From positions 3,168,001-3,232,000 of the forward strand of contig OZ241869.1 of NCBI GenBank assembly GCA_965202805.1: a stretch of DNA of 64,000 nt. The letters are read 5' to 3'. Shown piece after piece: positions 28,615-47,517 of this stretch. The notes beneath the pieces are model-generated. The model did not search any database. It saw only the letters and a program-made list of their open reading frames with translations, and had not been told where the DNA came from. Within the stretch, counting starts at the first letter, position 1. Each line of letters opens with the position of its first letter. Position numbers and translations under genes: made by a program. The DNA is from Longimicrobiales bacterium. GTDB lineage: Bacteria > Gemmatimonadota > Gemmatimonadetes > Longimicrobiales > Gaopeijiaceae.

Positions 28615-28645
28615 AAGTTAAACCCTGACGTTACGTCAGGGTCAA
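28615..28645 (-). promoter_or_regulatory. MerR-type promoter TTGACC-N19-TAACTT with perfect dyad operator
   Basis: 19-nt spacer; ACCCTGACGT-T-ACGTCAGGGT at 28622-28642; -10 ends 6 nt before the ATG. Confidence 0.85.
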
Positions 28646-28647
28646 GG
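28629..28647 (+). repeat. Left att-like direct repeat CGTTACGTCAGGGTCAAGG
   Basis: 18/19 identical to 47499-47517. Confidence 0.8.
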
Positions 28648-28885
28648 GGGGCGGAAATCAAGGCAAGGAATCGTCCAAGTTGAACTGGGACTGCACGATC
28701 TGCCGTCCTTGCCGATAGGCCGTGTCCAATCCCACTGGGCCGAAATAGCGGGGAAATCGGGTCGAATGGCGGGAAAGCGAACGCCACGAAACTGGTAGAA
28801 GAGCCCTCTCAAGCGGTAGCCCAAACAGGCGGACAAGTCCGACAAGGATGCCCATCCGAAGGAACGTGTGCACGCACAGCTAGGA

Positions 28886-29746
28886 TTAGTGCCAGCGAAT
28901 CGACGCCGATCCGGTGTCCGTGGGGAGGATCATCCAACGAGGGGCAATCAGGAGTTCGCCTCCTCGCCTGCGGCTGGACGCCGAGTAACGGAGAGAATAG
29001 GACCTGACCGTCGCCCACTCCTCGTAGAGCGCTCGCACTTCCGCGCAGTCGTCGTAGGTCAGGACCCACGGTCTGTCGTCCATCGTCCGCAGAACCTGAG
29101 CGAGCCGCGCATGATACGGGGCATCAAGGGCATTCAGGTACAGCGTAGGTCCTTTCCCGAAGTACGGCGGATCGATGAAGAAGAACGTGCCAGCGTCCGC
29201 AAGACTCCGAACGAAATCGATCCCGTCCAGCGCGGAGATGTGGATCCTCGACGCCTGCCGAGCGACTCGTTGACAGCGCTCCACTAGACCCTGCCGGTTG
29301 AAACGAGCGTCAAGGCGCCACTTCCCGGTTTGCCCGATTCCGCCGATTGGACCCCCGTTGCGGATAATCCCAGAGCGATTACAGCGGTTCAGGTAGAACG
29401 CTGCGAACGCCCGTTCCAGCCGTGAGGCCGAGCTAGGATCACGGTAGATCGCCCGCTGGCGGAGCCATTCGTCTATCGTGAGCGGCGCGGTATGGATCAT
29501 CTCCGAGAACTGGTCGATCCGCTCCAGGACCGCCCACCAGATATCCGAAACAGCTTCATCGACATCGTTGATGTGGACTGCCGGTGCCTCCCGACGAAAC
29601 AACAGCGTCAACGCCGCACCAGCGCCACCCGCATACGGTTCGGCGAAATCCCGATCTCGAAGTCGATTGGCGACGCGTACGCGGTTCAGGAGCCCCGCCA
29701 TCGTGGACTTCCCTCCCGGATACCGTAGAGGGCTAGCGGTCCCCAT
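28886..29746 (-). CDS. DNA adenine methyltransferase, D12/Dam class
   Basis: SPLRYPGGKS, EPYAGGAG, INDVD, DPPY motifs. Confidence 0.92.
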   Translation of the reverse strand: MGTASPLRYPGGKSTMAGLLNRVRVANRLRDRDFAEPYAGGAGAALTLLFRREAPAVHINDVDEAVSDIWWAVLERIDQFSEMIHTAPLTIDEWLRQRAIYRDPSSASRLERAFAAFYLNRCNRSGIIRNGGPIGGIGQTGKWRLDARFNRQGLVERCQRVARQASRIHISALDGIDFVRSLADAGTFFFIDPPYFGKGPTLYLNALDAPYHARLAQVLRTMDDRPWVLTYDDCAEVRALYEEWATVRSYSLRYSASSRRRGGELLIAPRWMILPTDTGSASIRWH

Positions 29747-29838
29747 ATCGCGCCAATCCTACCAAGGAGCCATCGTCGGCGCGTGGTCGCCGGTTTGCCG
29801 ACCTGAAACCAGCCGCCCGGAGCCCTCCCCAACGGATT

Positions 29839-30780
29839 CTAGTCGGCGTCAAGGGCGTGCCTGGCTTGCAGTGAGACCCCGATCCACTCTCGGAGCCGCT
29901 CGTCAAGTTGACTGTCCATGGCATCCGAACATAGCGCTGAGATACGGCATCGGTCGAGCAGGATCTGATCGGTCCCCGCGTCGCTCGCGTCCGGTTCCGA
30001 CAAGGCCCTTGGGACGAAGAACGCGGGAATCGGGTCCACGGCGACCGGTCCGGCGAAGTTCCGCTTGCACCAGCGTCCGGGTTGAAGTTCGTGTGTCTTC
30101 GTCTTCCAATGCTGGCCGACCGCGCACTGGCCAAACAGTATCAGTTTCGAGGCTCTCCGGTCTGGGAATTCCTTCCACGCCACGACATCGAGGCCATCGT
30201 CCTTGCTCTGGCTCAGGTTCTCGCGATCCGCGCATGCCTTCCCCTCCCGCAAGAGATTGGCCAAGTGGGCGACCGCGTCACGGAAGCCTGCCGGAAGGTC
30301 ACGCCGCGGCGCTCCGAACACCACTGCCGTCCTACTGTCACCGAGGTATCGACCGGCAGCCGTGGCGCTCAACTCCTCGAAAAGCTTGTAGACCGTGGTT
30401 CCATCTTGGTGGTCATCCGTGAAGCCAAGAGACACGAGCAACTGAAACAGGTAGGGCGAAGGGTGGCCACGAAGCTGAAGCCCATGTTGGCTGATATCAA
30501 ACGGGTAGGCGTCACCCGGTCCGCACGCTTGAGCCCTGTCGCCAAGGGCTTGGATCCACTCGTCCAGTAGCGTCTCGAATGGCTCAATGTCTCGCCATCC
30601 TGCCTCGGGCGGTTCCCTCCCGCGCTCCGAGTAGGTCGCGGTCGCTTCCTCCTCGGAGACCGTACGCCGGAGTTGTCCGATCACGTCGGCCCAAGCGAGG
30701 TAGCCTGAGGAGTCCGCCAAGCAGGTCCACTCCAGGCGATCGGCAGCGTCCTCGACCGCCAGGCTCGTGTCCGCGGTCAA
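29839..30780 (-). CDS. Putative PD-(D/E)xK restriction-endonuclease-like protein
   Basis: FEEL...KDDGLDVVAW...LILFGQC pattern; 4-nt overlap with upstream ParB gene. Confidence 0.55.
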   Translation of the reverse strand: MTADTSLAVEDAADRLEWTCLADSSGYLAWADVIGQLRRTVSEEEATATYSERGREPPEAGWRDIEPFETLLDEWIQALGDRAQACGPGDAYPFDISQHGLQLRGHPSPYLFQLLVSLGFTDDHQDGTTVYKLFEELSATAAGRYLGDSRTAVVFGAPRRDLPAGFRDAVAHLANLLREGKACADRENLSQSKDDGLDVVAWKEFPDRRASKLILFGQCAVGQHWKTKTHELQPGRWCKRNFAGPVAVDPIPAFFVPRALSEPDASDAGTDQILLDRCRISALCSDAMDSQLDERLREWIGVSLQARHALDAD

Positions 30781-31838
30781 GGCTCGTCGCGCGTCATGAG
30801 AGTCTTGAGTGACTCGGCCTGCCGAAGGAGGCTATTCACCGTTTCCACCAATTCTTCCTCGCCTTTGAACCCAGTCGAGACAAAGAGCATGGCCTCCCTC
30901 GCGCTGGCCTCGGCCTTGGTGAGTGCAGCCCGGAAAAGGTGGGCGTCGCCGAGTGAAGCGTCGAGCGCCACCGAAAGCGAGCTTCCGCTCTCCAGCAAGT
31001 CTATGCCCTTCTGCACCTCAAGAGTCCGCGCAAGGCGACGAAGGTCCGGGTTCTGGCGGCGAACCGTCGCGTCGATGTTCTCTGACTGGCTCCCGAAGAG
31101 CCATCGCATGAGGTATCCCAATTGCCGCAGGTGGCTTGGGGGAACCGGGTTTTCGTTCTCCAGCGCGTCGGGGTCGACTCCTAGGTACTTCCTGATGGAC
31201 ACATAGCCGAGCGCGGTCCACAGGTGGGAAAAAGGGAATCGTTTGTGCTGGGCGTCGGTCGTATCGAAATCGAGCTGCTCCTGTGCCTGCCGGAGGACCA
31301 CATATCCTCGGTACAGGCGCGCCACCGTCTCGTGGCGGTCTCCGATCCCCGACGCGATCTCAGCGAGACTCACGCCGAAGTCCCGCCGGACGCCAAACAC
31401 GTAATCCGCCTTGGCGATGGAATCCCAAGCCTGCGGGCCGTTGACGTGCTTGAAGCCAACGAAACCCCAAAGCTCCTCTCTTGTCGCGTGAATCACCGGG
31501 AGCTCTCGGATTGATTCCAGCACCGCCTCTGATGGATGTTCCTTGAGCGCGATACTGAGCCGCTCCCGTAGATGAGCATCCGAGAGGATCTTGACGGCCG
31601 CGAGCCGTCGGTTGCCCTCGACTACGACGAGACGACCGTCCTCCTCGGTCGCGAAGAGCTCCTCATGCTGCCAGAAACCGTTCGCCAGAATGGAGTCGAC
31701 CAGCTCGTTCACCGACTTGTTTCGCCAGAGCCAGAGCAGGATATCGTCCTGCTTTTCGACAGAGAGTCCTTCGTCCGCAAGCCGCGGGTTCGCGGGATCG
31801 AGGTACAGCTCGGCTGGGGCGTAACCAACGACCGCCAA
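30777..31838 (-). CDS. ParB/Srx N-terminal domain protein with HTH-like segment
   Basis: LYLDPANPRL, LVVVEGNRRLAAVK, SLAEIASGIG; AAAGGA RBS before TTG. Confidence 0.78.
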   Translation of the reverse strand: MAVVGYAPAELYLDPANPRLADEGLSVEKQDDILLWLWRNKSVNELVDSILANGFWQHEELFATEEDGRLVVVEGNRRLAAVKILSDAHLRERLSIALKEHPSEAVLESIRELPVIHATREELWGFVGFKHVNGPQAWDSIAKADYVFGVRRDFGVSLAEIASGIGDRHETVARLYRGYVVLRQAQEQLDFDTTDAQHKRFPFSHLWTALGYVSIRKYLGVDPDALENENPVPPSHLRQLGYLMRWLFGSQSENIDATVRRQNPDLRRLARTLEVQKGIDLLESGSSLSVALDASLGDAHLFRAALTKAEASAREAMLFVSTGFKGEEELVETVNSLLRQAESLKTLMTRDEP

Positions 31839-32041
31839 GGCGAATCATCCTTTCTGGAGAGGAGCCGTGAACCGGAGCGGTACCGGAAAGCCGACGCTGG
31901 TATCCGCAGCACCGCCCTTCAGTTTGCGTGTTCAGAGGACTCGTGGCTACCCCAACCGTGGATCCGACCCGCCACTTCCCTCAGTGGAACCGCGTCTCGC
32001 AGCCGAGCTTTCCTCGATCCCTCCGGGGACCAGTCCGATGG

Positions 32042-32721
32042 TGCGAGGTGGTCCCGGTTTCTTGGACAGGTCGTTAAGGTGGATTCCAGAGCGGAACGGG
32101 AGGCACCGAGATGGCCAGGAAGAGACGACGATTCACGCCCCGGTTCAAGGCACGGGTAGCGCTGGAGGCGTTGCGCGAGAGGGACAGCGTGCAGGCGATC
32201 GCCAGACGGCATGAGCTTCATCCGAACCAGGTGAGCACTTGGAAGCGGCTGCTGCTGGAGGGCTTCCGGAGGTGTTCTCGGGGGGTGCGGGCCGCAAGGC
32301 GGCCAGGGGAGCATGAGGCGAAGATCCGGGAGTTGCACGCCAAGATCGGGGAGTTGACGGTCGAGCGGGTTTTTCGGCGCGGCTCGAGCGAGACCCTGGA
32401 CGACGCGCTGGGCTGGCGGAGATCCCGAACACGGATCAAGGCGCCCAGTTCACCAGCGGGGCCTTCGCGGACCGGGTGCTGGGTGCGGGCGTGGCGTTCT
32501 CGATGGACGGCCGGGGCCGCTTTCACGACAACATCTTCATCGAGCGGCTGTGGCGGTCGCTGAAGTACGAGGCCGTGTATCTTCACGAACTCCGCAATGG
32601 GCTGGACGCGGAACGGATCATCGGCTCGTGGATCGATTTCTACAACGAGGTGTGCCCGCAATCGTCCCTCGGCGGGCGAACGCCGGGCGACGCCTATCAG
32701 GAAGGCGCGGAGGTGTCGTGA
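32042..32721 (+). mobile_element. IS3-family remnant with large internal deletion
   Basis: OrfA RRFTPRFKARVALEAL...VSTWK at 32111; OrfB tail NTDQGAQFTS, DNIFIERLWRSLKYE; IRL-like GTGGTCCCGGTTTCTTGGACA. Confidence 0.85.
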
Positions 32722-33005
32722 CCACGATCCGGTGCGACGCCACGCATGGAGCCGAACCGATGCAAGGGACGCCCGCGCCCGCGGCCGCTTCGGCGGACAC
32801 CGGTTCCCTCCGCCTTATGCTCCGATGTGGCTTTCCGCTCTCGCAGGATGACGGATATGCTTCGAGTGCCCCGGTCGCCTGCCCCGATCACCAGTCGCTC
32901 TCGTCAGAATCGGAAATGCCAACTCGATCTACTCCTTCTCGCGCCGACCGTCGCGATCCCGAGTCGCCCCGGCGCCGCAAGGACGCAGCAGCCGTGCAGC
33001 CAGAC

Positions 33006-33805: not shown

Positions 33806-35224
33806 TCATTCATTCATTGCCTCCAAGAGTGGGAATATGTTTCCGAACAACTGACAGACATCCCCCGTGGTCACCGAGAATTTCGGGTTGTGAACCAGCT
33901 GGTTCATGGAGGTCACCGACAACAGACCTTCCGACCGCGCCAACTCGGTCAGCGCTCCGTGTAGCTGCTTGGTGCGTTCCTTGTCGGTCTTGTTCTTCGT
34001 CAAGTGCTTTGTGATGTCCCGGAGGACGTCCACTAGAGGTCGATCCCTGCCATTCTTCTTAGTGGAAGGCCCGCCCGTAGCCCCGTGTTGCCCGCAGTAC
34101 GCCTTCGCGGAAATCTCGAACATGCTACGGACCAGGAAACAGAAAGCTAGGGGGTTGTTCCTGAGGTTCAACGCACGTATCTCGTCTCGCAGGAGAACCA
34201 CCTTCTCACGATCCGGCCCCCGAGGCGTGAAGCTCTTGATGGTAGCCTTGACGGCTCTTGGGTCTCGCAAACTTGCGGCCGGTGCTTTCCCACCCTTCGT
34301 CTTCGCACCAGCTTTGGTCCCGGTCTTGCCAGCCCTTCCCTTCTTTCCGGATTTTCTCTTCGGATCTCCAGAGAGGGGCGGAATCCCGTAGCGTGCTGCG
34401 AAATCCTCGTCCGACTTTCGGATTTCCGTGAACGTCAGGAGCTTGAGGCCGATGTCTTTTGCGATGGCTTCAACGGCGTCTCGATGGGAGATCGATGGGT
34501 ACCGGTTTGCGAGGTCCCGTGCGGAGTCCGCCCCAAGGCGCCCAGCGATCCTCTTCATTGCCTCCGCGAGCACCGTTAGCGGATAGTCACCCGCCCACTC
34601 CTGGGCCTGTTGGGGTGTGCGGTTCTTGCCATCCGCCAGGTAGGCTTCGAGGAGATCGAGCGCCGGTTCGTTGGCGCCGCTCTTGTCGCGACTGTGTCTT
34701 GCACGTGCGACTGCGGTCCAGTTGTTGCGCCCCGCTTTCTGCCCTTTGCCGTGGGCGAGCGTGACGATACGGTCCACGGTGTCGCTTTCCGACGCTGGGT
34801 AGATGATGCAGGGAACCTCGTCAGTCGCAGCCCGCCAACCACTCGGTACAACGGCCAGCTTGCTCTCGATGTTTGCGGGAACTTCGAGGTGTGAACGATT
34901 CAAGAGTCCGTGTGCGATCTTCAGGGCCGCCACGCGACGGTTTCCTTCCTTGACCGTGAAGGTCGGTTTCCCGCCGGAACCCACGCCCTCGAGCACGAGA
35001 ATGTTCTCTATCGGGAGGTACTCGCTGTCCAAGAGGCTCTCCGTTAGCGCCCAAAACCAGTCGGGTCGGATGGACACCATCGCGTCCACCGCTTCCTCTT
35101 CGTTTGATTGCGGGACCGTTCGGAAGTTTCTGAGATCTAGCTGTAGCTGCTTGATCGGCAGGCTCGCGACACTAGGCATGAAGTCTCTGGGTTTCGGCAA
35201 GTGGCTGGAAGTGGAAGCAGACAT
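33806..35224 (-). CDS. ParB/Srx N-terminal + C-terminal HEPN-like protein
   Basis: LQLDLRNFR, TVKEGNRRVAALK; Lys/Gly linker; FLVRSMFE...MNQLVHN helical C-terminal domain. Confidence 0.65.
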   Translation of the reverse strand: MSASTSSHLPKPRDFMPSVASLPIKQLQLDLRNFRTVPQSNEEEAVDAMVSIRPDWFWALTESLLDSEYLPIENILVLEGVGSGGKPTFTVKEGNRRVAALKIAHGLLNRSHLEVPANIESKLAVVPSGWRAATDEVPCIIYPASESDTVDRIVTLAHGKGQKAGRNNWTAVARARHSRDKSGANEPALDLLEAYLADGKNRTPQQAQEWAGDYPLTVLAEAMKRIAGRLGADSARDLANRYPSISHRDAVEAIAKDIGLKLLTFTEIRKSDEDFAARYGIPPLSGDPKRKSGKKGRAGKTGTKAGAKTKGGKAPAASLRDPRAVKATIKSFTPRGPDREKVVLLRDEIRALNLRNNPLAFCFLVRSMFEISAKAYCGQHGATGGPSTKKNGRDRPLVDVLRDITKHLTKNKTDKERTKQLHGALTELARSEGLLSVTSMNQLVHNPKFSVTTGDVCQLFGNIFPLLEAMNE

Positions 35225-35267: not shown

Positions 35268-38200
35268 TCAATGGACCGCTTCGAGAACCCCCATCCAGAC
35301 GACCAGATTCACTTCCTCCTCTTCGATGGGATCGAGCGGCTCGGGCGGCTTCCACGGTTGTAGCCCGAGTTCGTTCACGACATCGGCGATTCTGTGCGTC
35401 AACTCTCCGGGGGCGACCCGGTCGGGCGCGAACACCTCCCGGAGCCGCCGTTCCTGACGGATGCCCCACGGCGCTTCGAGGGCGTCCGCAACCCGGTCTC
35501 GATCCTCGATGGAAAACCCGGAGGCCGGGTGCATGCGGACATGGTCGGCAGCGGCCCGGAAGAGCGGACGGATGCTGGGCTGGAGCGTGGCCGGATCGGT
35601 GGCCCGCATCCATTCCTCGTAGATGTCGCCGCGGGCGCGCTCCCAAGCACCGAAAGCTCCTTCCACGAACCCCTCCGGCAGCGCGCGCTCCGTGTGCTCC
35701 GTGCATGATAGGATTCCGAGGCAGGTCAGGGTGTCGCGCTCGATCTCCGCGTCTGCCTCCAAGGGCACAAACCGCATAAACACGCGGTCGAAGACGCGGG
35801 CGCAAAAGACGTGGCCCGTGCGGACTCCGCCCACGAATCCCGAGCCGACTCCCCACGCCAAGTCTCGGATCCGGTCCCCCCAGCGCTCGATCCCCTTTCG
35901 TAGCTCCTGCCGGTACTCCTCGCCGCTGTGCGCGTGCACACCCTCGCCTCCACGCTTGAAGAGCGACGAGTCGCCTCTTCGGAGCGCCTCGATCTGCTTC
36001 CGGTCGTCCGCGAAGACCTGTTGCGTCTGCTCCATGCCGGGTATCGGGGGCTGTTCGACTCCGATGGAGGCAGCGGCTTGGGCCAGCTTCCGGCGGATCC
36101 GCTCTTCGAGGGCCAGAAGGGCTTCGAGTTGGCGGTCGGGAAACACGCAGGTGAGGAACACTTGCTCGTGGGGACTCCCGATGCGGTCTATGCGCCCGTG
36201 CCGCTGCACGAGCCGCATCGGGTTCCAGGGCAGGTCGTAGTTGATGATCCGTCCGCATTGCTGGAGGTTCATCCCTTCGGCCAGCACATCGGTCGTCACG
36301 AGGATGTCGTACCTGTCCTCGGAACGCGACGGTGGGGCCTCCGTGGACTCGGGCGCGAAGCCGAACACCGCGTCGCTGCGGCTGGTCCCGTTGAACGAGT
36401 CGGTTCCCCTGACGACGGCGATGCGGCCACGGTAGCGGGCGAGCCGCCGATCCGTTGCCACCACCTCCCGCAAGCGCTCCGCGATCCACTCGACGGTGTC
36501 GCCGAAGTAGGAGAACACGAGCACCTTGCGGCGGTTGCGGATGTCGCGCTCCGAGATGCCCTTCCGCTCGGCTTCTCCCGCGATACGGGCGAGTTCGCCG
36601 GCGAGGAGCTTGAGCTTGGGGTCGTTCTCCGCCTTTATCGCGGATGCCCGAACCCGGAGGCGTTCGAGAAGCGCCCTGTCCGATCTCACGTCTTCAATGA
36701 GCCTTGCGGTGTCGAGGTCGTCCGCGACCGGCTCACCCTCCCGGAGAAGCTCCTCCCACGCCTCGTCGGAATCGGTCTCGCGAAGGGCCGCCAGCGAATC
36801 GGAGGACGGGATCACCCCGGCCTCGACCCCGCGCACGAAATGGTCGTGTGCGGCGACCATCCTGCTCACGGTCTGGACGAACGCCCGCGCCGACGACTCG
36901 AACCGCTTGAGCAGACCGGAGCGGATGAGCCCCACCAGCGCGGTCTCGCGGGCGTCCGGGGCCCCCTTCCGGCGGTAGCGGGTCGGCCAGTATCTGGCCA
37001 TCGTGAGTCTCGGCTCGCCCTCCCCTGAGTCCAGAACCTCCGCGAACTCGTCAAAGAAGCCGGGCAGCACCTCGTCCAGATCGTAGCTTCGCGAGCCGAC
37101 CACCGGGTCCGGGAACCGGATCGTGACCTCGGTCCCGTCCTTGAGTCGGAAGTTGTCGTTCGGGTAGAAGCGCTGAACGAAGTGCCGCGTTCGCCGCACC
37201 GTGGTCGCGTCGAGGATGTCGAACAGGGTGTCCGGGTTGAGCGTGAACGGGTCCTCCTTGTCGGCCTGCCGGAACCGTTCCTTGAGCGAGCGGATGCCTC
37301 GGTCGGCGAACACCGCGTCATGGCCGACGAAGTAGGTGAGGAGGTCGTAAAGATCCCAGAGCGAGTTGTTCACCGGCGTTGCGGTCAGAAGGACCACTTT
37401 CCGGGGCGGGTCTCCGCGCAGAAGTTGCCGGAGCGCGCGCGCACGCTTCGTGTCCGGGTTGCGAAAGGCGTGCGCCTCGTCGATCACGACGAGCGAGTAC
37501 TCGCCGATGCCGGAGCCCAAGGCGCTCCCATCCCCTTGGCCCAGTTGCCGGTCGCCCGCCAGCTGCTCGAACGACACCACTTCGATGCCGACCTGGTAGC
37601 GCCTTCTGAATTGCCTCCACATCCCGTCCCGGAGCTGGGCCGGTGCGATCAGGAGCGCCCTTTGGCGGTTGCGCTCGATGACTTCCGTGAAGATCTCGGC
37701 CGCGATGAAGCTCTTCCCGAGTCCTACGCTGTCGGCGACCAGAACGCCATTGTACTGGTCGAGGATCCGCTTGGCCCGGAACACACCGTCGGTCTGGAAG
37801 CGCGTGAGCCGGATCCGGCCCGAGTCCCCCGCCTCCTCTTCGAGTTCACCGCCGTAGCGCTCCCACAGGGCGCGCAGGTAGATCAGGTAGGGAGGGTGTT
37901 CGGCGAACTGTTCCCTGTAGATGGCGGCGAGATCGTAGGGACGGGCGTCGTTCCAAAGACGGTCGAACCACTCCTCTACCCTTTCGACGACGCCGGGCTG
38001 GTACTGGCCGAGGTTGAGTTCGAGGTTCGACGTGAGCCCGGCAAGCGTGAAGTTCGACGATCCGGCGAGGACGCCGTGCTTGCCGGAGAACAGGAATGCC
38101 TTGCCATGCAGGAAGCGGTGCTCGTAGCGGCGCACCTCGATCTTGCCCGAGTCGAGGAAATCTAGGAGTTCCCGCACCGAGGCCCGGCTCGGCTCGGAGA

Positions 38201-38537
38201 ACGGGAGCCGGTCGCGGTCCCGCCTGAGTTTGCGCTCCGCGCCGTCGAGTTCTTCGTCCGCCAGCCTCTTCTCGTATCGCTCGCCGCGCGGATCGCCGAG
38301 GCGGCGCTCCGGCAGCCGGGCGGCAGGCAGCGGCTCGGCACCGAGCAGGAGGCGCACGCCCGCGGCGCGACGGAGCACGTCGGCCAGCCGACCGAATCCC
38401 CCCGGATTGAAGTATCCCGTCGCGATGGACGCCGAAGGCGGCTCGCGCAGACTGCCGAGCAGGTGTTCGAGGCGCTGCCGGAGCGCCCGCTCCAGGGTAT
38501 TGCCGTCGAGGTTGTCGACGAACTCCGGGTGGCTCAT
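35268..38537 (-). CDS. PLD-nuclease / SNF2-like helicase fusion
   Basis: ATGYFN, HGKAFLF, GSSNFT, NLELN (PLD); ADSVGLGKS, DEAH, TATP, QRHGRIDRIG (SF2). Confidence 0.9.
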   Translation of the reverse strand: MSHPEFVDNLDGNTLERALRQRLEHLLGSLREPPSASIATGYFNPGGFGRLADVLRRAAGVRLLLGAEPLPAARLPERRLGDPRGERYEKRLADEELDGAERKLRRDRDRLPFSEPSRASVRELLDFLDSGKIEVRRYEHRFLHGKAFLFSGKHGVLAGSSNFTLAGLTSNLELNLGQYQPGVVERVEEWFDRLWNDARPYDLAAIYREQFAEHPPYLIYLRALWERYGGELEEEAGDSGRIRLTRFQTDGVFRAKRILDQYNGVLVADSVGLGKSFIAAEIFTEVIERNRQRALLIAPAQLRDGMWRQFRRRYQVGIEVVSFEQLAGDRQLGQGDGSALGSGIGEYSLVVIDEAHAFRNPDTKRARALRQLLRGDPPRKVVLLTATPVNNSLWDLYDLLTYFVGHDAVFADRGIRSLKERFRQADKEDPFTLNPDTLFDILDATTVRRTRHFVQRFYPNDNFRLKDGTEVTIRFPDPVVGSRSYDLDEVLPGFFDEFAEVLDSGEGEPRLTMARYWPTRYRRKGAPDARETALVGLIRSGLLKRFESSARAFVQTVSRMVAAHDHFVRGVEAGVIPSSDSLAALRETDSDEAWEELLREGEPVADDLDTARLIEDVRSDRALLERLRVRASAIKAENDPKLKLLAGELARIAGEAERKGISERDIRNRRKVLVFSYFGDTVEWIAERLREVVATDRRLARYRGRIAVVRGTDSFNGTSRSDAVFGFAPESTEAPPSRSEDRYDILVTTDVLAEGMNLQQCGRIINYDLPWNPMRLVQRHGRIDRIGSPHEQVFLTCVFPDRQLEALLALEERIRRKLAQAAASIGVEQPPIPGMEQTQQVFADDRKQIEALRRGDSSLFKRGGEGVHAHSGEEYRQELRKGIERWGDRIRDLAWGVGSGFVGGVRTGHVFCARVFDRVFMRFVPLEADAEIERDTLTCLGILSCTEHTERALPEGFVEGAFGAWERARGDIYEEWMRATDPATLQPSIRPLFRAAADHVRMHPASGFSIEDRDRVADALEAPWGIRQERRLREVFAPDRVAPGELTHRIADVVNELGLQPWKPPEPLDPIEEEEVNLVVWMGVLEAVH

Positions 38538-41500
38538 TGGTCACTCTGCCACGCTCGGAAGTGGTGCAGCGTGGCCCTCAGTCGCTCCTCGTGGTCCCAA
38601 CCCTCGTGGAACGTCTCGAAGATGTGGACGAGTTGCGGTTCGGTGAGGCCGTAGATGTGGGCCACCACGGCGTCGAGCTCGCGAACAAGGTCTTCCTTGT
38701 CTTCCGCCTTGAGGGGGCCGTACTCGACGCCGATCCGCCCGGCCCAGTCGGCGAACCGCTCGTCGAGTGCCGCGAGCCTCCCCGCGAGCGCGATGACACG
38801 ATTCCGGCGCCGATCTTGGGGGCTTGGTCGGGGGACCGGCAATGGATTCAGCACGTGATAGTCAACGTGCGTTTCCACGAAACGTCGGGCATACCAATCG
38901 AGTGGAATCGATGTCATGACGCCAAGTAGGTACGCCTCGTCCTTCTCGTCTCCTCGTGGCCAGAGGAAGTACGGTGCGACATCCGTGAGACATGTGTTGG
39001 GGGGAACAAGGGAAGTGCGAACGGTCCGCCTATCGGTCGCTCGTGCAATACGCCGGAAAGCGATCCGTGCGCGCAAGCAAGGCAGCGTCTCAGTGTCGCT
39101 TCTCCAAGCCCGATCGAACTCCGCGAACGCGGAGCGCTTGTTCGCCCGCATCCGCTTGCTTTGAAGGTGGCCGAGCATCCGAGCGGGATCTGCCCACGCG
39201 TAGTACGTCCCCGTGTCGGCTGTCCACAGGTCGAACGACGCCCCCTTGTAGACCGGCCAGAATCCCTCGGGACACTCGTTCGACTCGACGTCCATCACAT
39301 GCTTGTCGTTCGTGGCATCCAGTTCCCTATGTGGCCGCGCCCGCCAACCCACCCCATCGTTGAGGTCCAGACGCGGGCTCTTGCGCAACTGCGCGAACAC
39401 CTCCACCGATTCGTCCGACGGCAGAAGCGGGAGGGACGCCGTGTCGTTCCACGCCTCGACCTCGCGAGCGCGGAACGTCACCGGAGCACGCCGGACACCG
39501 GCCCGAAACCGCTTGAGGTTCGCATACGGCCCGCTCAGCCGAAGCTTGGACTCGCGGCTGTCCTTCGCGCGCGTAATGGCGGTCAGGCCGATGGTGTATT
39601 GCGGATGGACGTTCGGGAACACCCACTCGCGGTTGTTCACCAACATGGTCAGATCCAGCACCTCGGCGCTCGCCAGCAACTCCTTGCGGAATGCCGTGGA
39701 TCCCTTCGCCGCCAGCGCCGAGCGGGGCAGCACGACGCCGATCCGCCCGCCGTCCGGCGACACAAGGTCCCAGAACCTCCAGACGAATGCCTTGTAGAGA
39801 TCGGGGTCGCCCGTACCCATCCCCGGGAACCCTCCAGCCGTGAGAAGGTGGCGCATTGAAGCTGCGCCGTCCTTTTCCGCTTCGAGCCGGTCCGCCAGAT
39901 CCGGGCGCTGGGCCCGATACTGAACCTTCAGCGTCTCCTGCACCCTCTGCGGCCGCGACCGTAACCCCGGGAAGTGTCGCGCCCAGAAAGCGTCCTCTTC
40001 GACGCGGGGTTTTTCCCAAGGCGGATTGCCGAGGATCACGTCGAACCCGTTGCGTCGGCCAAGGAATACGTGTGGGAAAGCGAGCGCGAAGTGCAGTACG
40101 TCCAGTCCCTTGAGTTCCTCGTGTCCCATGTCCATCAACTGGGCTCGGAAGATGTCGCCCGGGTCGTCCAAAGCCGTGGCCACCCGTCCCTCAGCGATTG
40201 CTTCCCGGATGCTACTGTTCGTCCGCGAAGCCGTCAGGAGCGTGAAGAGTTCCTGCTCCGATTGTATAGCCCGCCGCATTCGAGCATAGAGTTCCCGCGC
40301 TTCCCGGATCTCGGCGTCGTTCGCGTCCGTGAGCCGGGCGAGCTTCCCAAGTGGCTCCTGAATGGCTCCGAGGCGCTCACTCGCCACCAGCGAGAAGAGG
40401 TTGCCGCTCTCGGCTTGGAACAGTTCGGACGCCTCCTCGAAGGACGTGATTCCCACGAGCGAGTTCCCTTGAATCAGGTTGTGGTCGAGCAGCGAGAGCG
40501 GAAGCCCCGGCACGAAGGTGTGGATCCAGAGAGACAGTCGCGCCAGTTCGACGGCCATCGGGTTCATGTCCACCCCGAAGATGCAGCGCCGGGCCACCTG
40601 CCTGCGAAGCAGTTGGATGTCCTCGATGGGGTCCCCGGACCAGTCCGGCCCAAGTTCCTCGGCCGCCGTGCGGCGGAGCCGCGCGAACTCCTCGCGCACA
40701 TCCGGCAGCGCACGTCCGGCCAGGTAGTTGGCGAGCCGCCGCTCGATCCGGTCCACCGCGCCGACCAGGAAGTGGCCGGAGCCCATCGCGATGTCGGCGA
40801 CGCGGAACTCAAAGAACCGCCGCCCCGCCTCTCGGTCTGGCATTCCATCGAGCCGCTCGATGTGCTCGTCGAGCGCCGGTTCGAGCGCGCGGTCGAGGAG
40901 GTGTTCCACGGCGAAGGCCGGGGTGTAGTAGGACCCGCTGGACTTCCGCGCTCCCGACTGGTTGTGGAGATATACTTCGCCCGCACGCACCATGACCGTG
41001 TCACCGTATCGGGCCGGGAGGTAGGTCTCCGTCTTGGCGTCCACCGTCAGGTCGGTCTCGGCGAGTGAAAGCTCGCTCTCCAGCAGACCCTCATAGATCG
41101 TTCCGAACTCGCGGATGCCGAGCGACCGGAAGTCCACCGGGCCTTCCGTTTCCTCCGCTGTCCGGTCGAGGAGCAACGCGGCGAGCGCCCGCGCGAACTC
41201 TCGGTCAGGGAGCGAGAGAGCTGCGATCCGTGCTCCAAGCTTCGAGACCGACGCTTGGGAGGCGAAGAGCGTGCCGTTGTACGCCGGCACTTCCCACTCC
41301 GGGTTCCCGAGGCTCACGGCCGTCCAAATCTGCGTGACCTCCGCCCAGAAGAAAGGCTGTTCGCCGAACTCGATATCCTTGCGCCGGGCCTCGCCAAGGC
41401 GCTGGGCGATGCGCTTGAGTGAGTGCTCGCGGTAGCTCCGCGAGGCGTGCAGGGGCAGCAAGCCACGGTCCTCCGCATAGGCGACGAACAGAAGCCTGTA

Positions 41501-42547
41501 GAGGATGCGAAGCGCTGCTTGGTAGGCCTGTTGGAGATCGTCCGCAGTCGGACTCTCTGGATACATCGCCGCCACGACGGCGCGGGCAAGCGACGGCATC
41601 ACTTCGCGGTAGACCCGCTCGCGAAGACGACCGCCGAGATCTGCGGCGTAGTCCTCGCTCGTGCGGAGGATGTCTCCGACGCTCCCGCCCTCCGACAGCG
41701 CGGGCGCGGACAGCAGCAGCCAGAGGTAACCGGCGTCATCGCCCGAAAGGAGGTCGAGGTCGATCTCGACGAACGTCTCGGACCGTCCGCGTCGGCCCGT
41801 GCCGACGCCCGGCTTGGCCGGATAGAGGCGGAGCGTGCCGCGCGCCACAGCCACCACCCAGTCCAGGTTCTCCCGGTCGGCTTGGGCCAAGGCGTAGGAC
41901 ACCGGCGACACGCCGTCGAACCTGGGGCTCGCGGAGTCGATCTCCTCGGGCCGGTCGAGAAGGACGGCCACCGCGGTCTTGCGGTCTCTAGCCAGCAGCA
42001 GCATCGCCGGTCCGGGAAGCTCCTCGGTGGCGAACCCGAGACCCTCGATCAGCGCGCGTCCCCGGAGCGCCCGCACGCCGCGCGCCTCCTCGACCGCGAC
42101 CGCCCAGTCGCCGCGCGCCGGAACCCCCCGCTCAAGTTCCTGCATCGCGAAGAGGCCACCGTTGCGCAGGCCCGGGATCGGCGCGTCCAATGCGGGAAGC
42201 AGCCGATGGAGGAGCCGGATCGCGGCGTGCCGTCCATCCTCCTCCAATGCCATGCCGCACACGCCTTCGACCTGCTCGGCCGGCAGGTCCTGATGCTCGA
42301 CCGGGTTGTGCTCGGTCGGGCCGCACACTGCCGCTCGCCCCGCGCCCCATGGTGCCACGATCAGCACCGGCGCGGCGCGGCGTCCGGACCGCGCCCGGAA
42401 CATCGCCCTGAGATCCGCGATCCGGGGCCGCCCGTCCAACGCGACCACGACGACTTCGAGCGCTAGCGGTCCGCGCCCGAGATAGAGGTTGGCCCGGCGG
42501 TCTCCTACCGTAATGTCGCGATGTTCGAGGTGCTCGAGCATGGGCAC
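38534..42547 (-). CDS. Large Type IIG / Eco57I-like N6-adenine methyltransferase with C-terminal target-recognition region
   Basis: YEGLL, GSYYTP, DIAMGSGHFL, GNPPW, DLYKAF; ATGA overlap with helicase. Confidence 0.88.
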   Translation of the reverse strand: MPMLEHLEHRDITVGDRRANLYLGRGPLALEVVVVALDGRPRIADLRAMFRARSGRRAAPVLIVAPWGAGRAAVCGPTEHNPVEHQDLPAEQVEGVCGMALEEDGRHAAIRLLHRLLPALDAPIPGLRNGGLFAMQELERGVPARGDWAVAVEEARGVRALRGRALIEGLGFATEELPGPAMLLLARDRKTAVAVLLDRPEEIDSASPRFDGVSPVSYALAQADRENLDWVVAVARGTLRLYPAKPGVGTGRRGRSETFVEIDLDLLSGDDAGYLWLLLSAPALSEGGSVGDILRTSEDYAADLGGRLRERVYREVMPSLARAVVAAMYPESPTADDLQQAYQAALRILYRLLFVAYAEDRGLLPLHASRSYREHSLKRIAQRLGEARRKDIEFGEQPFFWAEVTQIWTAVSLGNPEWEVPAYNGTLFASQASVSKLGARIAALSLPDREFARALAALLLDRTAEETEGPVDFRSLGIREFGTIYEGLLESELSLAETDLTVDAKTETYLPARYGDTVMVRAGEVYLHNQSGARKSSGSYYTPAFAVEHLLDRALEPALDEHIERLDGMPDREAGRRFFEFRVADIAMGSGHFLVGAVDRIERRLANYLAGRALPDVREEFARLRRTAAEELGPDWSGDPIEDIQLLRRQVARRCIFGVDMNPMAVELARLSLWIHTFVPGLPLSLLDHNLIQGNSLVGITSFEEASELFQAESGNLFSLVASERLGAIQEPLGKLARLTDANDAEIREARELYARMRRAIQSEQELFTLLTASRTNSSIREAIAEGRVATALDDPGDIFRAQLMDMGHEELKGLDVLHFALAFPHVFLGRRNGFDVILGNPPWEKPRVEEDAFWARHFPGLRSRPQRVQETLKVQYRAQRPDLADRLEAEKDGAASMRHLLTAGGFPGMGTGDPDLYKAFVWRFWDLVSPDGGRIGVVLPRSALAAKGSTAFRKELLASAEVLDLTMLVNNREWVFPNVHPQYTIGLTAITRAKDSRESKLRLSGPYANLKRFRAGVRRAPVTFRAREVEAWNDTASLPLLPSDESVEVFAQLRKSPRLDLNDGVGWRARPHRELDATNDKHVMDVESNECPEGFWPVYKGASFDLWTADTGTYYAWADPARMLGHLQSKRMRANKRSAFAEFDRAWRSDTETLPCLRARIAFRRIARATDRRTVRTSLVPPNTCLTDVAPYFLWPRGDEKDEAYLLGVMTSIPLDWYARRFVETHVDYHVLNPLPVPRPSPQDRRRNRVIALAGRLAALDERFADWAGRIGVEYGPLKAEDKEDLVRELDAVVAHIYGLTEPQLVHIFETFHEGWDHEERLRATLHHFRAWQSDQ

Positions 42548-42716
42548 TGGCAGCAGTCTGGGGTCGGCGGGCTCGGATTCAACCGCCCCAACCTACATGA
42601 CGTGTACGGGGGTGCGCGACTTGGAGTCAGTGCCAGTAGGCCGTCGTCACGGCCACGACGGTCTCCAGTGCTGGATCCTCGGCCCAGGACGATCCGGCAT
42701 ACGAGAAACAGAGCTC

Positions 42717-43800
42717 CTACGCCCAGCGTTGCTTCACATATCCGACGAGATCGGGTCCTTCGAGGGACCGGGTCGAGTTGTTCACTCGGGCGAAGAAGAC
42801 CCTGTCACTCTTGGACACCGTGGCGTAGATCGGTTCGGGTGATGGAGTGACGTGTACGAGGGCGACCTGAATGCCTTTGACAGCCTCCAGTCGGATCCTC
42901 GCCATCGTCGAAACGAGCGGTCCGAGCGAACGCCCGATGGTCGTGGTGAGCGCGCCTACGTAACGGTCCCCGTCCACGTTTTTCTTGTCCAGGTCTGGCT
43001 GGGTCCCAAGGACTTCGCCGTCATCCGCGACACCGATCGTGAGGGTGCCGCCATTGGAGTTGAGGAAGCCCGCGACGGTCTTCAACACGGATTCTGTGAT
43101 TACTCTCTCGTGGACGTTCGGCCTGTAGCTGAGGTACACAGAGGACTTGAACTCGACCCGTTCGGTCTCCATCTCGTCCAAGAGTCCTCGACAGACCACT
43201 CGGGGAGGCCGAACGAGGGAGGCACTGCCTCCTCCTCTGGAACCTGACCCGTGCGGAGCCTGGCGAACGCTGCTCGAACGACCTCGGCGATGAGCACCCG
43301 CCGTTTTGGAGAAAGTCCTGATACTCCGTCTCTTCCCACCCGTCGGGCAAAGCGTGCCAGAACCGAGCTTGTTTCTGCTGCTGCGGCGTAAGCTGCTCGA
43401 AGAGTGCAGGGAAATACTCGCTGGGTGGCGAGTCGCCGATCTTCGCGTTGTCAGGCCATTCGACGAAGGCGGAGTTGGCGATCTGGTTCCGCTGAACGGT
43501 ACGGTCGATACCGATCCGCGTCAGATACGCCTTTGGGAACAGATGATGGCGCTCGACAGCTGATCGAGGAGCGTGGGTGGATGGGTCGAGCAACTCGCCC
43601 AGGTGGAGCGGCGAGAACAGAGGCCGAGCGTTGAGGAGCACGAGGCTGGCAGAGTACGCGAACAGTGTTTCGAGTGAGCTGGGGAGTTGAATGGTCCAGT
43701 AGTCTTCGGTCAGTGCCGTGTCGATGATTCCGCTCGGTGTCGCCATGAAGGCCTCACCGGACTTCGCCTCCGCGATACGGCGGAGATCCTGCTCAACTCT
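42717..43800 (-). pseudogene. Truncated, frameshifted GmrSD-like (DUF262/HNH-type C-terminus) - AlbA_2 fusion
   Basis: ERHHLFPKAYL...NQIAN...N; continues across frameshifts near 43310 (QDFL/KRRVLIA) and 43185 (WSVED/LLDEMETERVEFKSS) into AGFLNSNGGTLTIGVADDG. Confidence 0.7.
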
Positions 43801-44438
43801 GCGCTTCCCACGGCGCACCGAGAAATGCGGAGCAAGTGGCCATAACCACGATCCGGCGCCACGCCACACACGGAGCCAAACCGGCGCAACGCGTCCTGCG
43901 TGCCTGGCCGAGTCAGCGGACGCCGGTTCCCTCCGTGTTCCCATCGGGAGTCGGTCCCGACGGGAACGCGGAGGTCGTCTTCACGCCGTGGCTGGCGGAC
44001 TGCGTTCGCACGGGCCTGCTTGGGACCCGGCGTTCTCCACCCTAGCCGTACAGATTCGCTCGCATCCTTCGTCCGGCCCTCACTCCGCCTTCCGTCTGAT
44101 TCCATCCGCCTCCGTCCATCTGCGACTTGGCTGTGCCGGCTCGACGACGGCCCGACATCCCGCCGGTTCTCGACTGAAACACTAGCGACGAGTCGGAGGA
44201 CGGCGCCCGCGCCCGCTCCAGCACTTTGAGCGGCCCATGGTGGGCGCAGGTCCTGCGCGGACGCCCCCGGATCCACGGAGAATGCGTCCGCCGAGCCGGC
44301 GGCGAAGCCTTCCACCGATCGCGGCGCGTTCTGACACAACCTGACACGAACTCATCACTTAGCAGATTTCCCAATGGTTGACGCGCTTGCGAACGGCTCC
44401 TCACCGTCCGGCCATGAAGGCGCCGGAACGACACGGCC

Positions 44439-44879
44439 GTGGAGACTCTGGAGCAGCAGTTCAACTCTCGGGTGAGCGCGTTCCTCGGCCGGACGGGCAG
44501 GAAACCCACGACCCTCGGCATGAGGGCGGTGGGCGGACCGGGTTGGCCCGCACGTGCCTGTCGCGCAGCACGATCTACAGGTGGCGGGTCGCGGGACGCT
44601 TCCCCTCGCCGGTCGTCATGGCAGGCGCACCGTGGGCAGGATCGAATCGGACGTGGGCGCATGGACCTGCGAGCGCGCCGTGGAGAGCCGGGGCGGCGGA
44701 ACGGCCCTCGCCCGCCGACCCCCAGGACGGAGGGAGAGACGATGAGAGCGTTGACGAGAACGCTGCGGTTCGAGTTCCTGGACTCCGTCCCGCCCGAGCT
44801 GGTCGTCCACAACCCGATGGCCATCCTCATCACCTACCTCCAGGCCGACCTGGCGCTCGTGACCGGGGCGTCGCCGTGA
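44439..44879 (+). pseudogene. Collapsed regulatory module including a frameshifted AlpA-like excisionase
   Basis: LSRSTIYRW...GRFPSPV and GRRTVGRIESDVGAW in different frames, between other short fragments. Confidence 0.6.
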
Positions 44880-45811
44880 TCGCGCACCTGAAGGGCCGCG
44901 AGAAGGCGCTCGAAGCGTTCGGCTGGACGGGCCGCGAGGCCGAGTGGATCGCGCTCGTGTGCCTGCACAGCGGCGTGTTCACCCGCGATCAGATCTCCGA
45001 CTGGCTCGGCATCCACCGCCGCAGCGCCCGCCGGTTCATCCGGGACATGTCGGACCGGAGGCTGGCGGCGAGGGACCGGCTTGCAGGCCGGAGAGTTTGT
45101 CGGATCTACGCGCGGGCGGTCTACCGGGCGCTCGGGGCCGAGGACATCCGCCACCGCCGGATCGCCTCCGTGCCGGTGCTCCTCCGCCGCCTGCTCTCGC
45201 TCGACTACGTGATTGGCCACACCGGCCAGGCGTGGCTCCCGACCGAGCCCGAGAAGGTCGGAGCGTTCGAGGCGCTCGGCATCGAGCGCGCGCTGCTGCC
45301 CGTGCGCGTGTACCGGGGCGGCGGCGGCGATACGCGCCGCTACTTCCCCCTCAAGCTGCCCGTCGCGCTCGATGCCGGAGGCGCGGTGTTCGTCTACGCC
45401 GATCCCGGCCATGACACCGCCTCGGGTCTCCATGCCTGGGGCCGCGCGCACCGGGAACTATGGGGCGCGCTGAGGGACCGGGGCCATCCGGTCGAGGCCG
45501 TCGCCGTCGTCCTGGGCGACGGGGAGTTCGACCGGGCGGAGAAGGTGCTCGGCAACTGGACCTCCCCGGTCCGGTCCACCGGCCGCTCGCGGGCGTCCGT
45601 GACCGGTCGTGAGATCCGCCGTGAGATCGAACGGATCGAACAGGGCATCCGCGACAGGGACGAGAGCGTGATCGAAGAGCACGGCAGCTTCCGGGGCTGC
45701 CTGGCACGGCTCGCCGAACTCCGGGCCGCGCTTCCGACCGCGCCCTCCGAGGCGATGATCGACGGCTTCACGGTGTGGCGTTCGAGCCGGCTGTGGGGGG
45801 ACCTGTTTTGA
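44876..45811 (+). CDS. Element-associated hypothetical protein (possible replication/mobilisation factor)
   Basis: GTGA overlap start; CLHSGVFTRDQ, wHTH-like N-terminus, RRLLSLDYV, RYFP; sits between AlpA remnant and integrase. Confidence 0.6.
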   Translation: MIAHLKGREKALEAFGWTGREAEWIALVCLHSGVFTRDQISDWLGIHRRSARRFIRDMSDRRLAARDRLAGRRVCRIYARAVYRALGAEDIRHRRIASVPVLLRRLLSLDYVIGHTGQAWLPTEPEKVGAFEALGIERALLPVRVYRGGGGDTRRYFPLKLPVALDAGGAVFVYADPGHDTASGLHAWGRAHRELWGALRDRGHPVEAVAVVLGDGEFDRAEKVLGNWTSPVRSTGRSRASVTGREIRREIERIEQGIRDRDESVIEEHGSFRGCLARLAELRAALPTAPSEAMIDGFTVWRSSRLWGDLF

Positions 45812-45814
45812 GCG

Positions 45815-46130
45815 CCGGACGCGGGCGGGGGTGGCAAGTCCTGCGTGTCCGGTTCACCTTGGGGGTCGCCGGACACGAAATGGCCGTTCGACCGGACACG
45901 GCCCCGGCCGTCCATGTCGCTGGCGCGCTTTCGGTTGCGCTACGGACAGCGGAGCGGGGGTGCCGATTCGGGATCCTCGGAGGTGGCTGGGAGCGACCCC
46001 CCATCTCGGCATGCCTCGATTGGCGCCGGGGTGGATGGAGCCGGACAGCCCCATCCCCCCCGCCGCTGCGGGGTCGCTCCCAGCCAGCAGTCCCTCCGGG
46101 AAGGGTGTCCGGCCGATGAGGCCGGGCACG
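45815..46130. repeat. Cluster of CCGGACA(C/G)-type repeats plus 17-bp perfect inverted repeat
   Basis: Copies at 45815, 45844(-), 45869, 45892, 45943, 46041, 46105(-), 46122; IR at 45984-46000 / 46070-46086. Confidence 0.7.
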
Positions 46131-46246
46131 CCCGCCTTCATCCCGCGAGAGGCACACGCACCGCCGCCGCGACTGGCGGAAACACCCCGCCCGCGCGAAG
46201 TTTCGGGCGCGCAGATCGTGCAGTCCATCATCGGAGGAATCGAATG

Positions 46247-47416
46247 ATGGCACGCACGAAACGAAGTCGGCGCAGCTACGGCGCCGGTGAATGGGGCCGG
46301 AACCGGGTGAGGGTGTTTCCCGACCCGAAGACCGGCATGTTCCAGATCGAGTGGCGAGAGAACGGGCGCAGGCTCACCCGGTCGCTGGGACACCGCGAAT
46401 GGTTGAGGGCGAAGCGGCAGGCGGACGAGTTCGCCGCCGGTTTCGTCGGCCCGGAGCTGAACGGCAAGGCACAAGCGGAGCCCGAGCCGCTCACGCTGGG
46501 AAGGCTTCTTGAAATCTACGGTGAGGAGGTGACGCCCACGAAGGCGGAGACCTCTCAGCGGTCCGACCGGGCCGCGGCGAGGATGTTCCTCCAGTTCTTC
46601 GGGCGGGACCGCAAGCCCTCCACGCTCTCCCAGCGCGACTGGGACCGGTTCATCCGGACGAGGCGCGCGGGCAAGGTCGGACCGAGCGGCAAGCCGGTGT
46701 CCGATCGAACGCTCGAACACGACCTGAAGTTCCTGATCGCCGTGTTCAACTGGGCCGCGAGGTCGAAGGACGAGCGAGGCTGCCTGCTCCTCGACAGGAA
46801 CCCGTTGAAGGGCCTGAAGATGCCCACGGAGAAGAATCCCACGCGGGTGGTGTTGTCCGGGGAGGAGTACCAAGCGCTTCTCGGGGTGTCCCGGCAAGTC
46901 GGCTGGCGATTCCGCGTCGCGCTCGTGCTCGCACACGAAACCGGACACCGGATCGGCGCCATCCGTCACCTGCGGTGGTCCGATATCGACCTCGAAGGCG
47001 GAGTCATCCGGTGGAGAGCGGAGCACGAAAAGACCGGATACGAGCATTGCACGCCGGTGACCGCCGAGGCTCTTGCCGCCTTGAATGAGGCGCGAAGGAG
47101 GAATCCCGGAACCGGGGACACTCCGGTGCTACCCGCGTCCACTGACGCCTCAAGGTGCGCGGGCCGGTCGCTGGTCCGCTACTGGTGGAATCGAGCCCAG
47201 AAGCTCGCGGGTCTGGAACCCCAGCGCGGGAGAGGCTGGCACTCGCTGAGGCGGAAGTTCGCCAGCGACCTGATGGACCAGCCCCTGAAGGTGCTCTGCG
47301 AGTTGGGAGGCTGGAAGACGGCCAAGACCGTGCTTCAGTGCTACCAGAGGGCCGACGAGGACCGGCTTCGGAAGGCGCTCGCGAGCCGCCGCACCGGGGC
47401 GCTCAATCCCGTTTAG
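46247..47416 (+). CDS. Tyrosine recombinase / integrase
   Basis: GGAGGA RBS; arm-binding-like N-terminus; TGHRIG, EKT, WHSLRR, LGGW, CYQ catalytic pattern. Confidence 0.92.
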   Translation: MARTKRSRRSYGAGEWGRNRVRVFPDPKTGMFQIEWRENGRRLTRSLGHREWLRAKRQADEFAAGFVGPELNGKAQAEPEPLTLGRLLEIYGEEVTPTKAETSQRSDRAAARMFLQFFGRDRKPSTLSQRDWDRFIRTRRAGKVGPSGKPVSDRTLEHDLKFLIAVFNWAARSKDERGCLLLDRNPLKGLKMPTEKNPTRVVLSGEEYQALLGVSRQVGWRFRVALVLAHETGHRIGAIRHLRWSDIDLEGGVIRWRAEHEKTGYEHCTPVTAEALAALNEARRRNPGTGDTPVLPASTDASRCAGRSLVRYWWNRAQKLAGLEPQRGRGWHSLRRKFASDLMDQPLKVLCELGGWKTAKTVLQCYQRADEDRLRKALASRRTGALNPV

Positions 47417-47498
47417 CGGGAACGAATCGGCGGGAGTCCTGACCGCCAATCCCGTAACCTCAACCATCGCAACACGATGAGAATCTGTTACCTCCCGC

Positions 47499-47517
47499 CG
47501 TTACGTAAGGGTCAAGG
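47499..47517 (+). repeat. Right att-like direct repeat CGTTACGTAAGGGTCAAGG
   Basis: 18/19 identical to 28629-28647; 82 nt after integrase stop. Confidence 0.8.

Follow-up and report, generated by a model that had tools for sequence, protein, structure and literature searches.

Lambda-type integrases owe their site specificity to homology within the overlap combined with reading of the core sites. In the pdif modules of Acinetobacter plasmids, as in integron cassette arrays, modules that lack an integrase and often encode toxin-antitoxin pairs lie between short recombination sites, while palindromes of the REP (repetitive extragenic palindromic) type are short, dispersed, often located at gene 3' ends, and serve as multi-copy targets of insertion sequences. 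Genomic islands are described, in the accessible part of one study, as often reconstituting their targets (PMC12884075), and surveys of island targets list, in the portions available, tRNA genes, coding sequences and intergenic regions, operators not being named there (PMC12884075, PMC13626063). MerR promoters have a spacer of 19-20 bp with a dyad (PMC9909328 and PMC5045206, as excerpted), and AlbA, a related regulator, selects the half-site ACNCTNACG (bioRxiv 10.64898/2026.09.21.753095, in its available part). In a literature covered mostly through titles and the openings of abstracts, with subscription journals thinly represented, we found no description of an operator-targeting integrase or of an operator serving as the bacterial attachment site, attB. 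Here we analyse a window of 64,000 nucleotides of a Longimicrobiales bacterium (assembly GCA_965202805.1, contig OZ241869.1, positions 3,168,001 to 3,232,000 of the forward strand), in which an integrase-bearing island adjoins the promoter of tipA, a regulator gene of the MerR family. We consider it very likely that the TipA-type MerR operator dyad is attB for one clade of lambda-type integrases, the island belonging to a large family of small elements in the Longimicrobiales (Gemmatimonadota).

Results

The features that define the locus are the following (window coordinates).

27796..28608, minus strand: tipA, regulator of 270 residues with MerR helix-turn-helix (HTH) and TipAS parts (Pfam MerR_1 and TipAS); host gene outside the island
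28615..28645, minus strand: MerR-type tipA promoter, -35 TTGACC at 28640-28645, 19-nt spacer, -10 TAACTT at 28615-28620
28622..28642, no strand: operator dyad ACCCT-N-ACGT-N-ACGT-N-AGGGT, forming the left att junction, with the putative crossover core CGTTACG at 28629-28635
28636..28647, plus strand: element-borne -35-side operator arm, promoter-restoring; found after the core at left ends of non-tipA sites and at tandem junctions
28648..28780, plus strand: left end, conserved across the element family and found in 17/18 congeners
28747 and 28768, plus strand: two copies of GCGGGA-like direct repeats in the left end
46247..47416, plus strand: tyrosine integrase, 389 residues, R235, H332-x-x-R335, W356 and Y366 intact
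47415..47498, plus strand: right end of the element, inner arm ending CCGC, GCGGGA direct repeats at 47415 and 47429
47499..47517, plus strand: right att junction, core CGTTACG at 47499-47505 and half-operator from the flank; empty allele in G014, contig break at 47499

When up to 3 mismatches are allowed, the 19-mer CGTTACGT(C/A)AGGGTCAAGG is confined to two places in the window, 28629-28647 and 47499-47517 (chance expectation, mean 0.01 in 100 shuffles), and the wider stretches 28617-28647 and 47487-47517 are identical at 25/31 positions. The repeat pair of the preliminary description is real, and so is the arrangement that it reported of an integrase and restriction-like cargo between the copies, defence-type genes being found there along with the tyrosine integrase; the copies are the ends of an island of 18.9 kb. 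The empty site that was to be sought in relatives exists in G014, where the tipA promoter joins the sequence after the right copy directly (96.7% identity over 1479 bp from 47499), which bears out the boundaries. Among contigs of public runs, one of run X1 equals 47499-48090 without a difference and has different sequence before 47499, and one of run X21 diverges from the window at 28628. The single mismatch between the repeat copies lies just outside the 7-bp core and is different again in the empty allele. With att cores repeated directly at its two ends and an empty allele in relatives, the element qualifies as a genomic island, and the intact R-HxxR-H/W-Y set marks its recombinase as a tyrosine integrase; none of the conjugation, relaxase or virion genes that would indicate an integrative and conjugative element, an integrative and mobilizable element or a prophage was found among the window proteins scanned, a few open reading frames being without assignment. 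No tRNA gene was found in the window and the integrase clade ends at the dyad, in agreement with the original statement that the att site is not a tRNA. The G+C content is 65% inside the island and 68-69% outside; the host is a marine bacterium, and the public runs that hold the stretch are mostly sponge metagenomes or coded organisms.

The left copy is, as first described, the dyad and -35 element of a TipA-like merR gene, the product of which has TipA, SkgA and MtaN as its nearest solved structures. The minus strand reads TTGACC-N19-TAACTT, the start codon follows 6 nt past the -10, and the dyad overlaps the -35 in the 19-bp spacer before the regulator gene, as is characteristic of a TipA-type operator of the MerR family. 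A class-wide pattern search for the TTGACC-dyad in 200 genomes yielded 26 distinct loci, of which 19 directly precede a tipA-like gene, in four families, with TANNNT at the -10 position in 19/19; at the other loci, not before tipA, TANNNT is found in 0/7. The proposed target, a MerR operator, is borne out in its TipA-type form, but the link to copA or cueR genes that had been envisaged was not found. The AlbA half-site ACNCTNACG fits the half-site of the tipA dyad, and six of the eight DNA-contact residues listed for AlbA recur in this TipA at a constant offset of 15. At the right copy TTGACC-N19-TAACAG is present as described, but with half a dyad only and a -10 without its final T. Its supposed role as a promoter of antisense transcription into the integrase was rejected: the -35 derives from the flank, and the -10 varies between TAACAG, TCACAG and TTACAG in the closest relatives. 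A standard sigma-70 scan of 47300-47700, which excludes 19-nt spacers, found no promoter. Other left ends of the element family have GCGG in place of the -35-side arm, and we infer that this arm was captured from the host. As a separate observation, tipA matches with TipAS only, the DNA-binding part being absent, occur in G225, G099, G178, G084, G240, G245 and G169 (second genus); these are possibly deletions at an insertion hot spot.

The central evidence comes from the target sites of related integrases. Matches to the integrase number 342 in the genus, in 18/19 genomes, and the downstream flanks were read for 72 of them, comprising all full-length listed hits of at least 79% identity and a sample below. 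The flank ends at the half-dyad for 37/37 integrases of at least 80% identity versus 0/35 below 80% (one of the 35 masked), and tRNAs are the location of 6 of these 35, including two from the own genome, the remainder being elsewhere. In a quick tree of 71 rows the 37 dyad integrases form one side of a branch (Shimodaira-Hasegawa-like approximate likelihood ratio test 94, 1 change). A second set gives 22/23 versus 0/57 ending at the dyad (14 of the 23 are proteins already included above, two of which are found here at new sites) and a set from the second genus 8/9 versus 0/39 (three of the nine repeat the 22/23 set); an exception within the dyad clade, L563, is interrupted by another integrase. 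No integrase of at least 80% identity was found among the matches listed in 7/7 near-complete genomes without dyads. The notion that the integrase family targets MerR operators is correct clade-wide but not beyond that one clade, own-genome paralogues 74-76% identical being located at tRNA-Leu and tRNA-Ile; likewise, homologues at tRNAs or other sites, which had been named as telling against it, are encountered chiefly below 80% identity, whereas relatives of at least 80% are, with few exceptions, at the dyad. The 47 junctions, in 37 flank clusters, give the target arm consensus T-N-A-G-G-G-T (T46/47, N, A46, G45, G46, G42, T44). In the own genome the bare core is present at 212 places, yet the target arm is strict. 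Many sister clades end in YGC-C-N5-G-GCR.

The wider integrase family, which reaches 30-46 copies per genome (G001, G006, G012, G017 and others) and comprises many target clades, includes other integrase genes and a mobC-like gene among its targets. The tRNA-Leu and tRNA-Ile elements (integrases G000:C1:1003677-1004837 and 2044624-2045787) duplicate the tRNA 5' part, not the 3' end. Residues diagnostic of the clade were sought and four weak alignment columns (100, 111, 305, 360) obtained; phage and plasmid collections returned one weak match each to the integrase (26-29% identity), and a PDB search returned distant Xer and lambda integrase only. An XerC/D-pdif system was rejected: the integrase scores 30-41 bits versus XerC/XerD cut-offs of 220-371, and the site has a 7-bp core.

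At the element ends, sequence of the element takes the place of the host arm as far as the first C of CGTWACG on one side and from beyond its last G on the other, and since it stops at these limits and the repeat mismatch lies just outside, the crossover core would be the 7 bp CGTWACG; the remaining 10-bp identity between the repeats would then represent an operator arm that belongs to the element. In 8/8 elements that could be read at both ends, the two cores share their middle base, which is what a requirement for overlap homology that also fixes the orientation would predict, and both insertion orientations occur. Readable tipA operators are occupied in 22/44 cases (11/15 in the own genus, 11/29 in the second genus), a count to which G010 (inverted) was added by hand, in which G140 (after its flank was read), G238 and the relic in G255 are taken as empty, and which excludes G132 (unreadable) and G038 (other family). 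The idea that the element's attachment site, attP, mimics the promoter so that integration rebuilds it holds for the 14/22 occupied operators in which TTGACC is kept, in 9 via the left end (direct) and in 5 via the right end (inverted), but the element has the -35 half only, and the -35 is lost in the other 8/22. The two separate captures of the -35 arm suggest selection to keep tipA transcribed.

Dyads also occur dispersed along the chromosome. The own genome holds 14 within 3 mismatches of the 23-mer (control 0), and the arms alone are found 11 times versus 0.13 expected; promoter geometry is seen at 1/16 own-genome sites, the tipA copy only. The dispersed copies as a classical MerR regulon were rejected on this figure and on the 0/7 non-tipA TTGACC-dyads with TANNNT. 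The initial equation of attB with a MerR promoter applies to the occupied tipA operators but is too narrow for the clade, most insertions of which lie at dyads that are dispersed and lack promoter geometry. Dyad copies are present in 16/18 congeners and in 44/53 genomes of the second genus, with at most 35 each, and number 0-1 per genome in 22 sampled genomes of other genera; G007 and G009, which an ATP synthase tree places within the group of dyad-bearing genomes, are without tipA and have decayed dyad forms. Many dispersed dyads are at gene ends or within genes (some gene calls around them, made by a simple dicodon caller, are approximate), 9/20 intergenic dyads of G091 lie between convergent genes, and in a logo of the dyad copies no shared foot is apparent beyond the arms. 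A second clade element of the own genome occupies a different dyad, the alleles of which in G001 and G006 are empty, and in G008 an element lies within sucA at a dyad copy. In G091 the ortholog (L492) of the SSF gene at window 48370-49899 carries a dyad in frame, which replaces a same-length stretch and changes VTRARP to LTLRQG (12/24 nt identical versus 83% for the gene); this replacement fits neither simple model of the dispersed copies discussed below.

Further observations on dyads are that the peptide LTLRQ is also found at the in-gene dyads of sucA and a third gene, that tandem dyad pairs occur 28-42 bp apart, and that in-frame insertions with a dyad are found inside two genes (L495/L497 and L501/L502 in G091; G223). 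A 10.5-kb block of metabolic genes lies between two dyads at G000:C1:2388975-2399472 and in G018:C60 and is 95% identical at the tested end, as compared with about 92% in the ATP synthase region; it is a possible case of dyad-mediated exchange of core genes.

The remaining parts of the island and the adjoining cassette are as follows.

28886..29746, minus strand: D12-class adenine methyltransferase, PD-Lambda-5 B-like (profile match, E 1.5e-94)
29839..30780, minus strand: protein of 313 residues, function not assigned (phrog_14650)
30777..31838, minus strand: protein of 353 residues, N-terminus resembling PD-Lambda-5 A / PDC-M38A (profile match)
32111..32563, plus strand: transposase HTH remnant (HTH_Tnp_1)
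33806..35224, minus strand: PD-Lambda-5 A-like protein (profile match, E 2.5e-187)
35268..38537, minus strand: PLD and SNF2 helicase (domain matches; far under the NCBIfam DrmD cut-off)
38534..42547, minus strand: type IIG restriction-methyltransferase (profile match, E 9.9e-290)
42717..43199, minus strand: Schlafen AlbA_2 domain protein (Pfam-type domain match)
44549..44620, plus strand: AlpA-like fragment, apparently broken (Phage_AlpA, 22 bits versus a cut-off of 21)
44876..45811, plus strand: HTH-type protein of 311 residues, family not recognised, also in a related element
47506..48362, plus strand: HEPN-MNT pair, integrase-less cassette at the same site (genes 47619-48044 and 48037-48357)

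Both PD-Lambda-5 parts and the type IIG restriction endonuclease-methyltransferase are thus assigned by profile match, the putative PD-Lambda-5 A and B genes not being adjacent. A direct repeat of 90 bp (78%) at 32717-32810 and 43845-43935 flanks the restriction/helicase cluster, with a third copy at G000:C1:1697767, and the cluster is possibly a nested module. The AlpA-like fragment, a frame without a start of its own upstream of the gene for the 311-residue HTH protein, is a possible former directionality factor, and the GCGGGA-like repeats of the left end are putative arm-type sites. At other loci, in G002 and G010, the HEPN-MNT pair is flanked by dyads on both sides, its distal dyad being decayed in the window and in G014; in G006, G008, G016 and G091 dyad-bounded modules form arrays, and several of these modules are toxin-antitoxin pairs. 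The HEPN-MNT cassette was also seen at another locus in G006.

Discussion

That the element is a lambda-type integrative island which rebuilds its target, the new part being an operator as attB, is well supported by sequence comparison. Several points weigh against this conclusion. The tree was made by a quick method and the clade branch is unstarred, L284, an integrase of 82% identity, ends at another target, and the core part of the junction logo belongs to the pattern by which the junctions were selected, with 1/47 rows mis-parsed. Binding of the dyad by TipA would follow, by analogy, from promoter geometry and from the AlbA motif and residues; at offset 15 the remaining two AlbA contacts comprise a matching Leu and Glu61, which does not match. 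Integrase-less cassettes that lie between two full dyads are probably mobilised by the integrase too, as judged from positions only. As to present activity, no excised-circle or empty junction was found among 15 listed of 47 joints, taken from contigs only and with rare forms dropped; junctions of right end to left end do occur, in chromosomal tandem arrays.

We propose that the two arms of the operator would serve the integrase as core sites for binding, with strand exchange across the central CGTWACG, the GCGGGA repeats in the element ends assisting recombination. Because only the middle base breaks the symmetry of the core, this base would set the orientation of insertion. The sister ends YGC-C-N5-G-GCR are near the operator core, so that a small change of specificity, to TGA-CGTWACG-TNA, would suffice. 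The tipA promoter is likely the original target and a hot spot, and the -35 arm would have been captured twice, at the left end (direct) and at the right end (inverted), such that tipA stays transcribable; the dispersed dyads would be further targets. TipA on the dyad would cover the same bases as the integrase, and competition with recombination is predicted.

The dispersed copies may be written and refreshed by recombination, through insertion into half-matching sites and deletion scars, the operator being a self-spreading site. To this we give an even chance, given that the HEPN-MNT cassette, which is found at different loci, brings both arms of the operator with it, that toxin-antitoxin and single-gene modules are arrayed between dyads, that 24/43 dyads in relatives are non-syntenic with the own genome within 3 kb (a count without a control), that orthologous places differ, with indels, in whether they have a dyad, that dyad positions are lineage-specific, that recurrent alleles resemble element ends (CATGA), and that the atpG dyad copy is changed in several of its 13 holders. 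However, no dyad-clade integrase is found in G091 (35 dyads), G254 (34), G205 (29), G150 (18), G018 (12) or G240 (11), the same-length SSF replacement is beyond simple site-specific exchange, and the copies in G205 (21 perfect, 8 with one mismatch, 0 with two, 1 with three) consequently show no tail of decay. A second account, which in our judgement falls somewhat short of even, holds that the host selects the copies as sites of TipA, or of a co-lost protein, in a non-promoter role such as a roadblock or chromosome organisation, and that the integrase clade exploits them. In the second genus 33/33 genomes with full-length TipA have at least 2 dyads and full-length TipA occurs in 0/9 zero-dyad genomes, yet at least 2 dyads are present in 8/20 genomes without full-length TipA, including the near-complete G240 (11), and the zero-dyad genomes are the smallest, kin not being independent. 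The absence of both tipA and dyads from G007 and G009, with decayed versions at atpG, the enrichment of the arms alone, the coincidence of the position left free in TipA promoters with the most variable position, and the retention of the rare codon TTA (0.17% of Leu) in sucA in 15/18 genomes argue for host selection, whereas the mostly lineage-specific dyad positions, the scarcity of promoter geometry (1/16 own-genome sites), and the lack of dispersed copies in G034 and G038, which have TipA and belong to another family, argue against it.

With respect to targeting itself, it is unlikely that TipA guides integration by recruiting the integrase to TipA-bound, distorted DNA. Unlike inner arms (CCGC, CATGA, CATGC, CCCTGA) are tolerated on element ends while target arms are strict, and clade integrases occur only in genomes with dyads among the matches listed, as guidance would have it; but TipA and the integrase would need identical bases, and overlap homology with core-site reading explains the specificity. 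A reading in which the right copy arose by chance or as a MerR box of its own, with the true island limits elsewhere, might draw on the right flank, the HEPN-MNT cassette, being itself mobile; this is refuted by the exact empty allele in G014, the small chance expectation, and the identical junction in 37 clade members, and we give it practically no credence.

Returning to the operator dyad as the attachment site of an integrase clade, the finding would add regulator operators to the target classes of site-specific integrases. The same 21 bp would be recognised by a host transcription factor, as judged by analogy, and by a mobile recombinase, so that competition between them, or integration that depends on a signal, becomes testable. 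Among enzymes 75-85% identical the target switches in fine grain (tRNA, other elements, operator), a help in mapping integrase specificity and in engineering it. In these bacteria, genome plasticity and the turnover of defence genes may have a main route in the dispersed dyads and their cassettes. One may speculate further, although we lean against it, that the integrase clade has turned the operator into a general, self-copying recombination site, every copy of which would still be a binding site for the antibiotic-sensing regulator, such that ligand state could steer rearrangement; dozens of landing pads, arrays of integrase-less cassettes, exchangeable blocks of core genes and even rewritten codons would then be the outcome.

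When compared with tRNA-targeting islands, the element likewise has a terminal tyrosine integrase, a short crossover core, a piece that rebuilds the host target, and defence cargo, and sister clades of its own family use tRNA 5' halves; the target here, however, is a transcription-factor operator, present in multiple copies and used in both orientations, and the rebuilt part consists of a -35 box with a half-operator. The dyad cassettes resemble pdif and integron arrays in being stacked, integrase-less and often of toxin-antitoxin type, but their site is an operator of 21-23 bp with a 7-bp core rather than dif or attC, and the candidate enzyme is encoded by the element. As with REP palindromes, dyads are often at gene 3' ends and sometimes paired or in frame within genes, whereas their visitor is a tyrosine integrase, changes in the arms are non-compensatory, and the motif is the operator of a regulator. 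Finally, the tipA promoter shares with those of TipA, Mta, SkgA and AlbA the 19-bp spacer with a central dyad (PMC9909328, as excerpted), and its half-site fits the AlbA motif from SELEX (systematic ligand evolution by exponential enrichment); it differs from them in that the operator is also a recombination site, of which 2-35 chromosomal copies exist without -35 and -10 elements.

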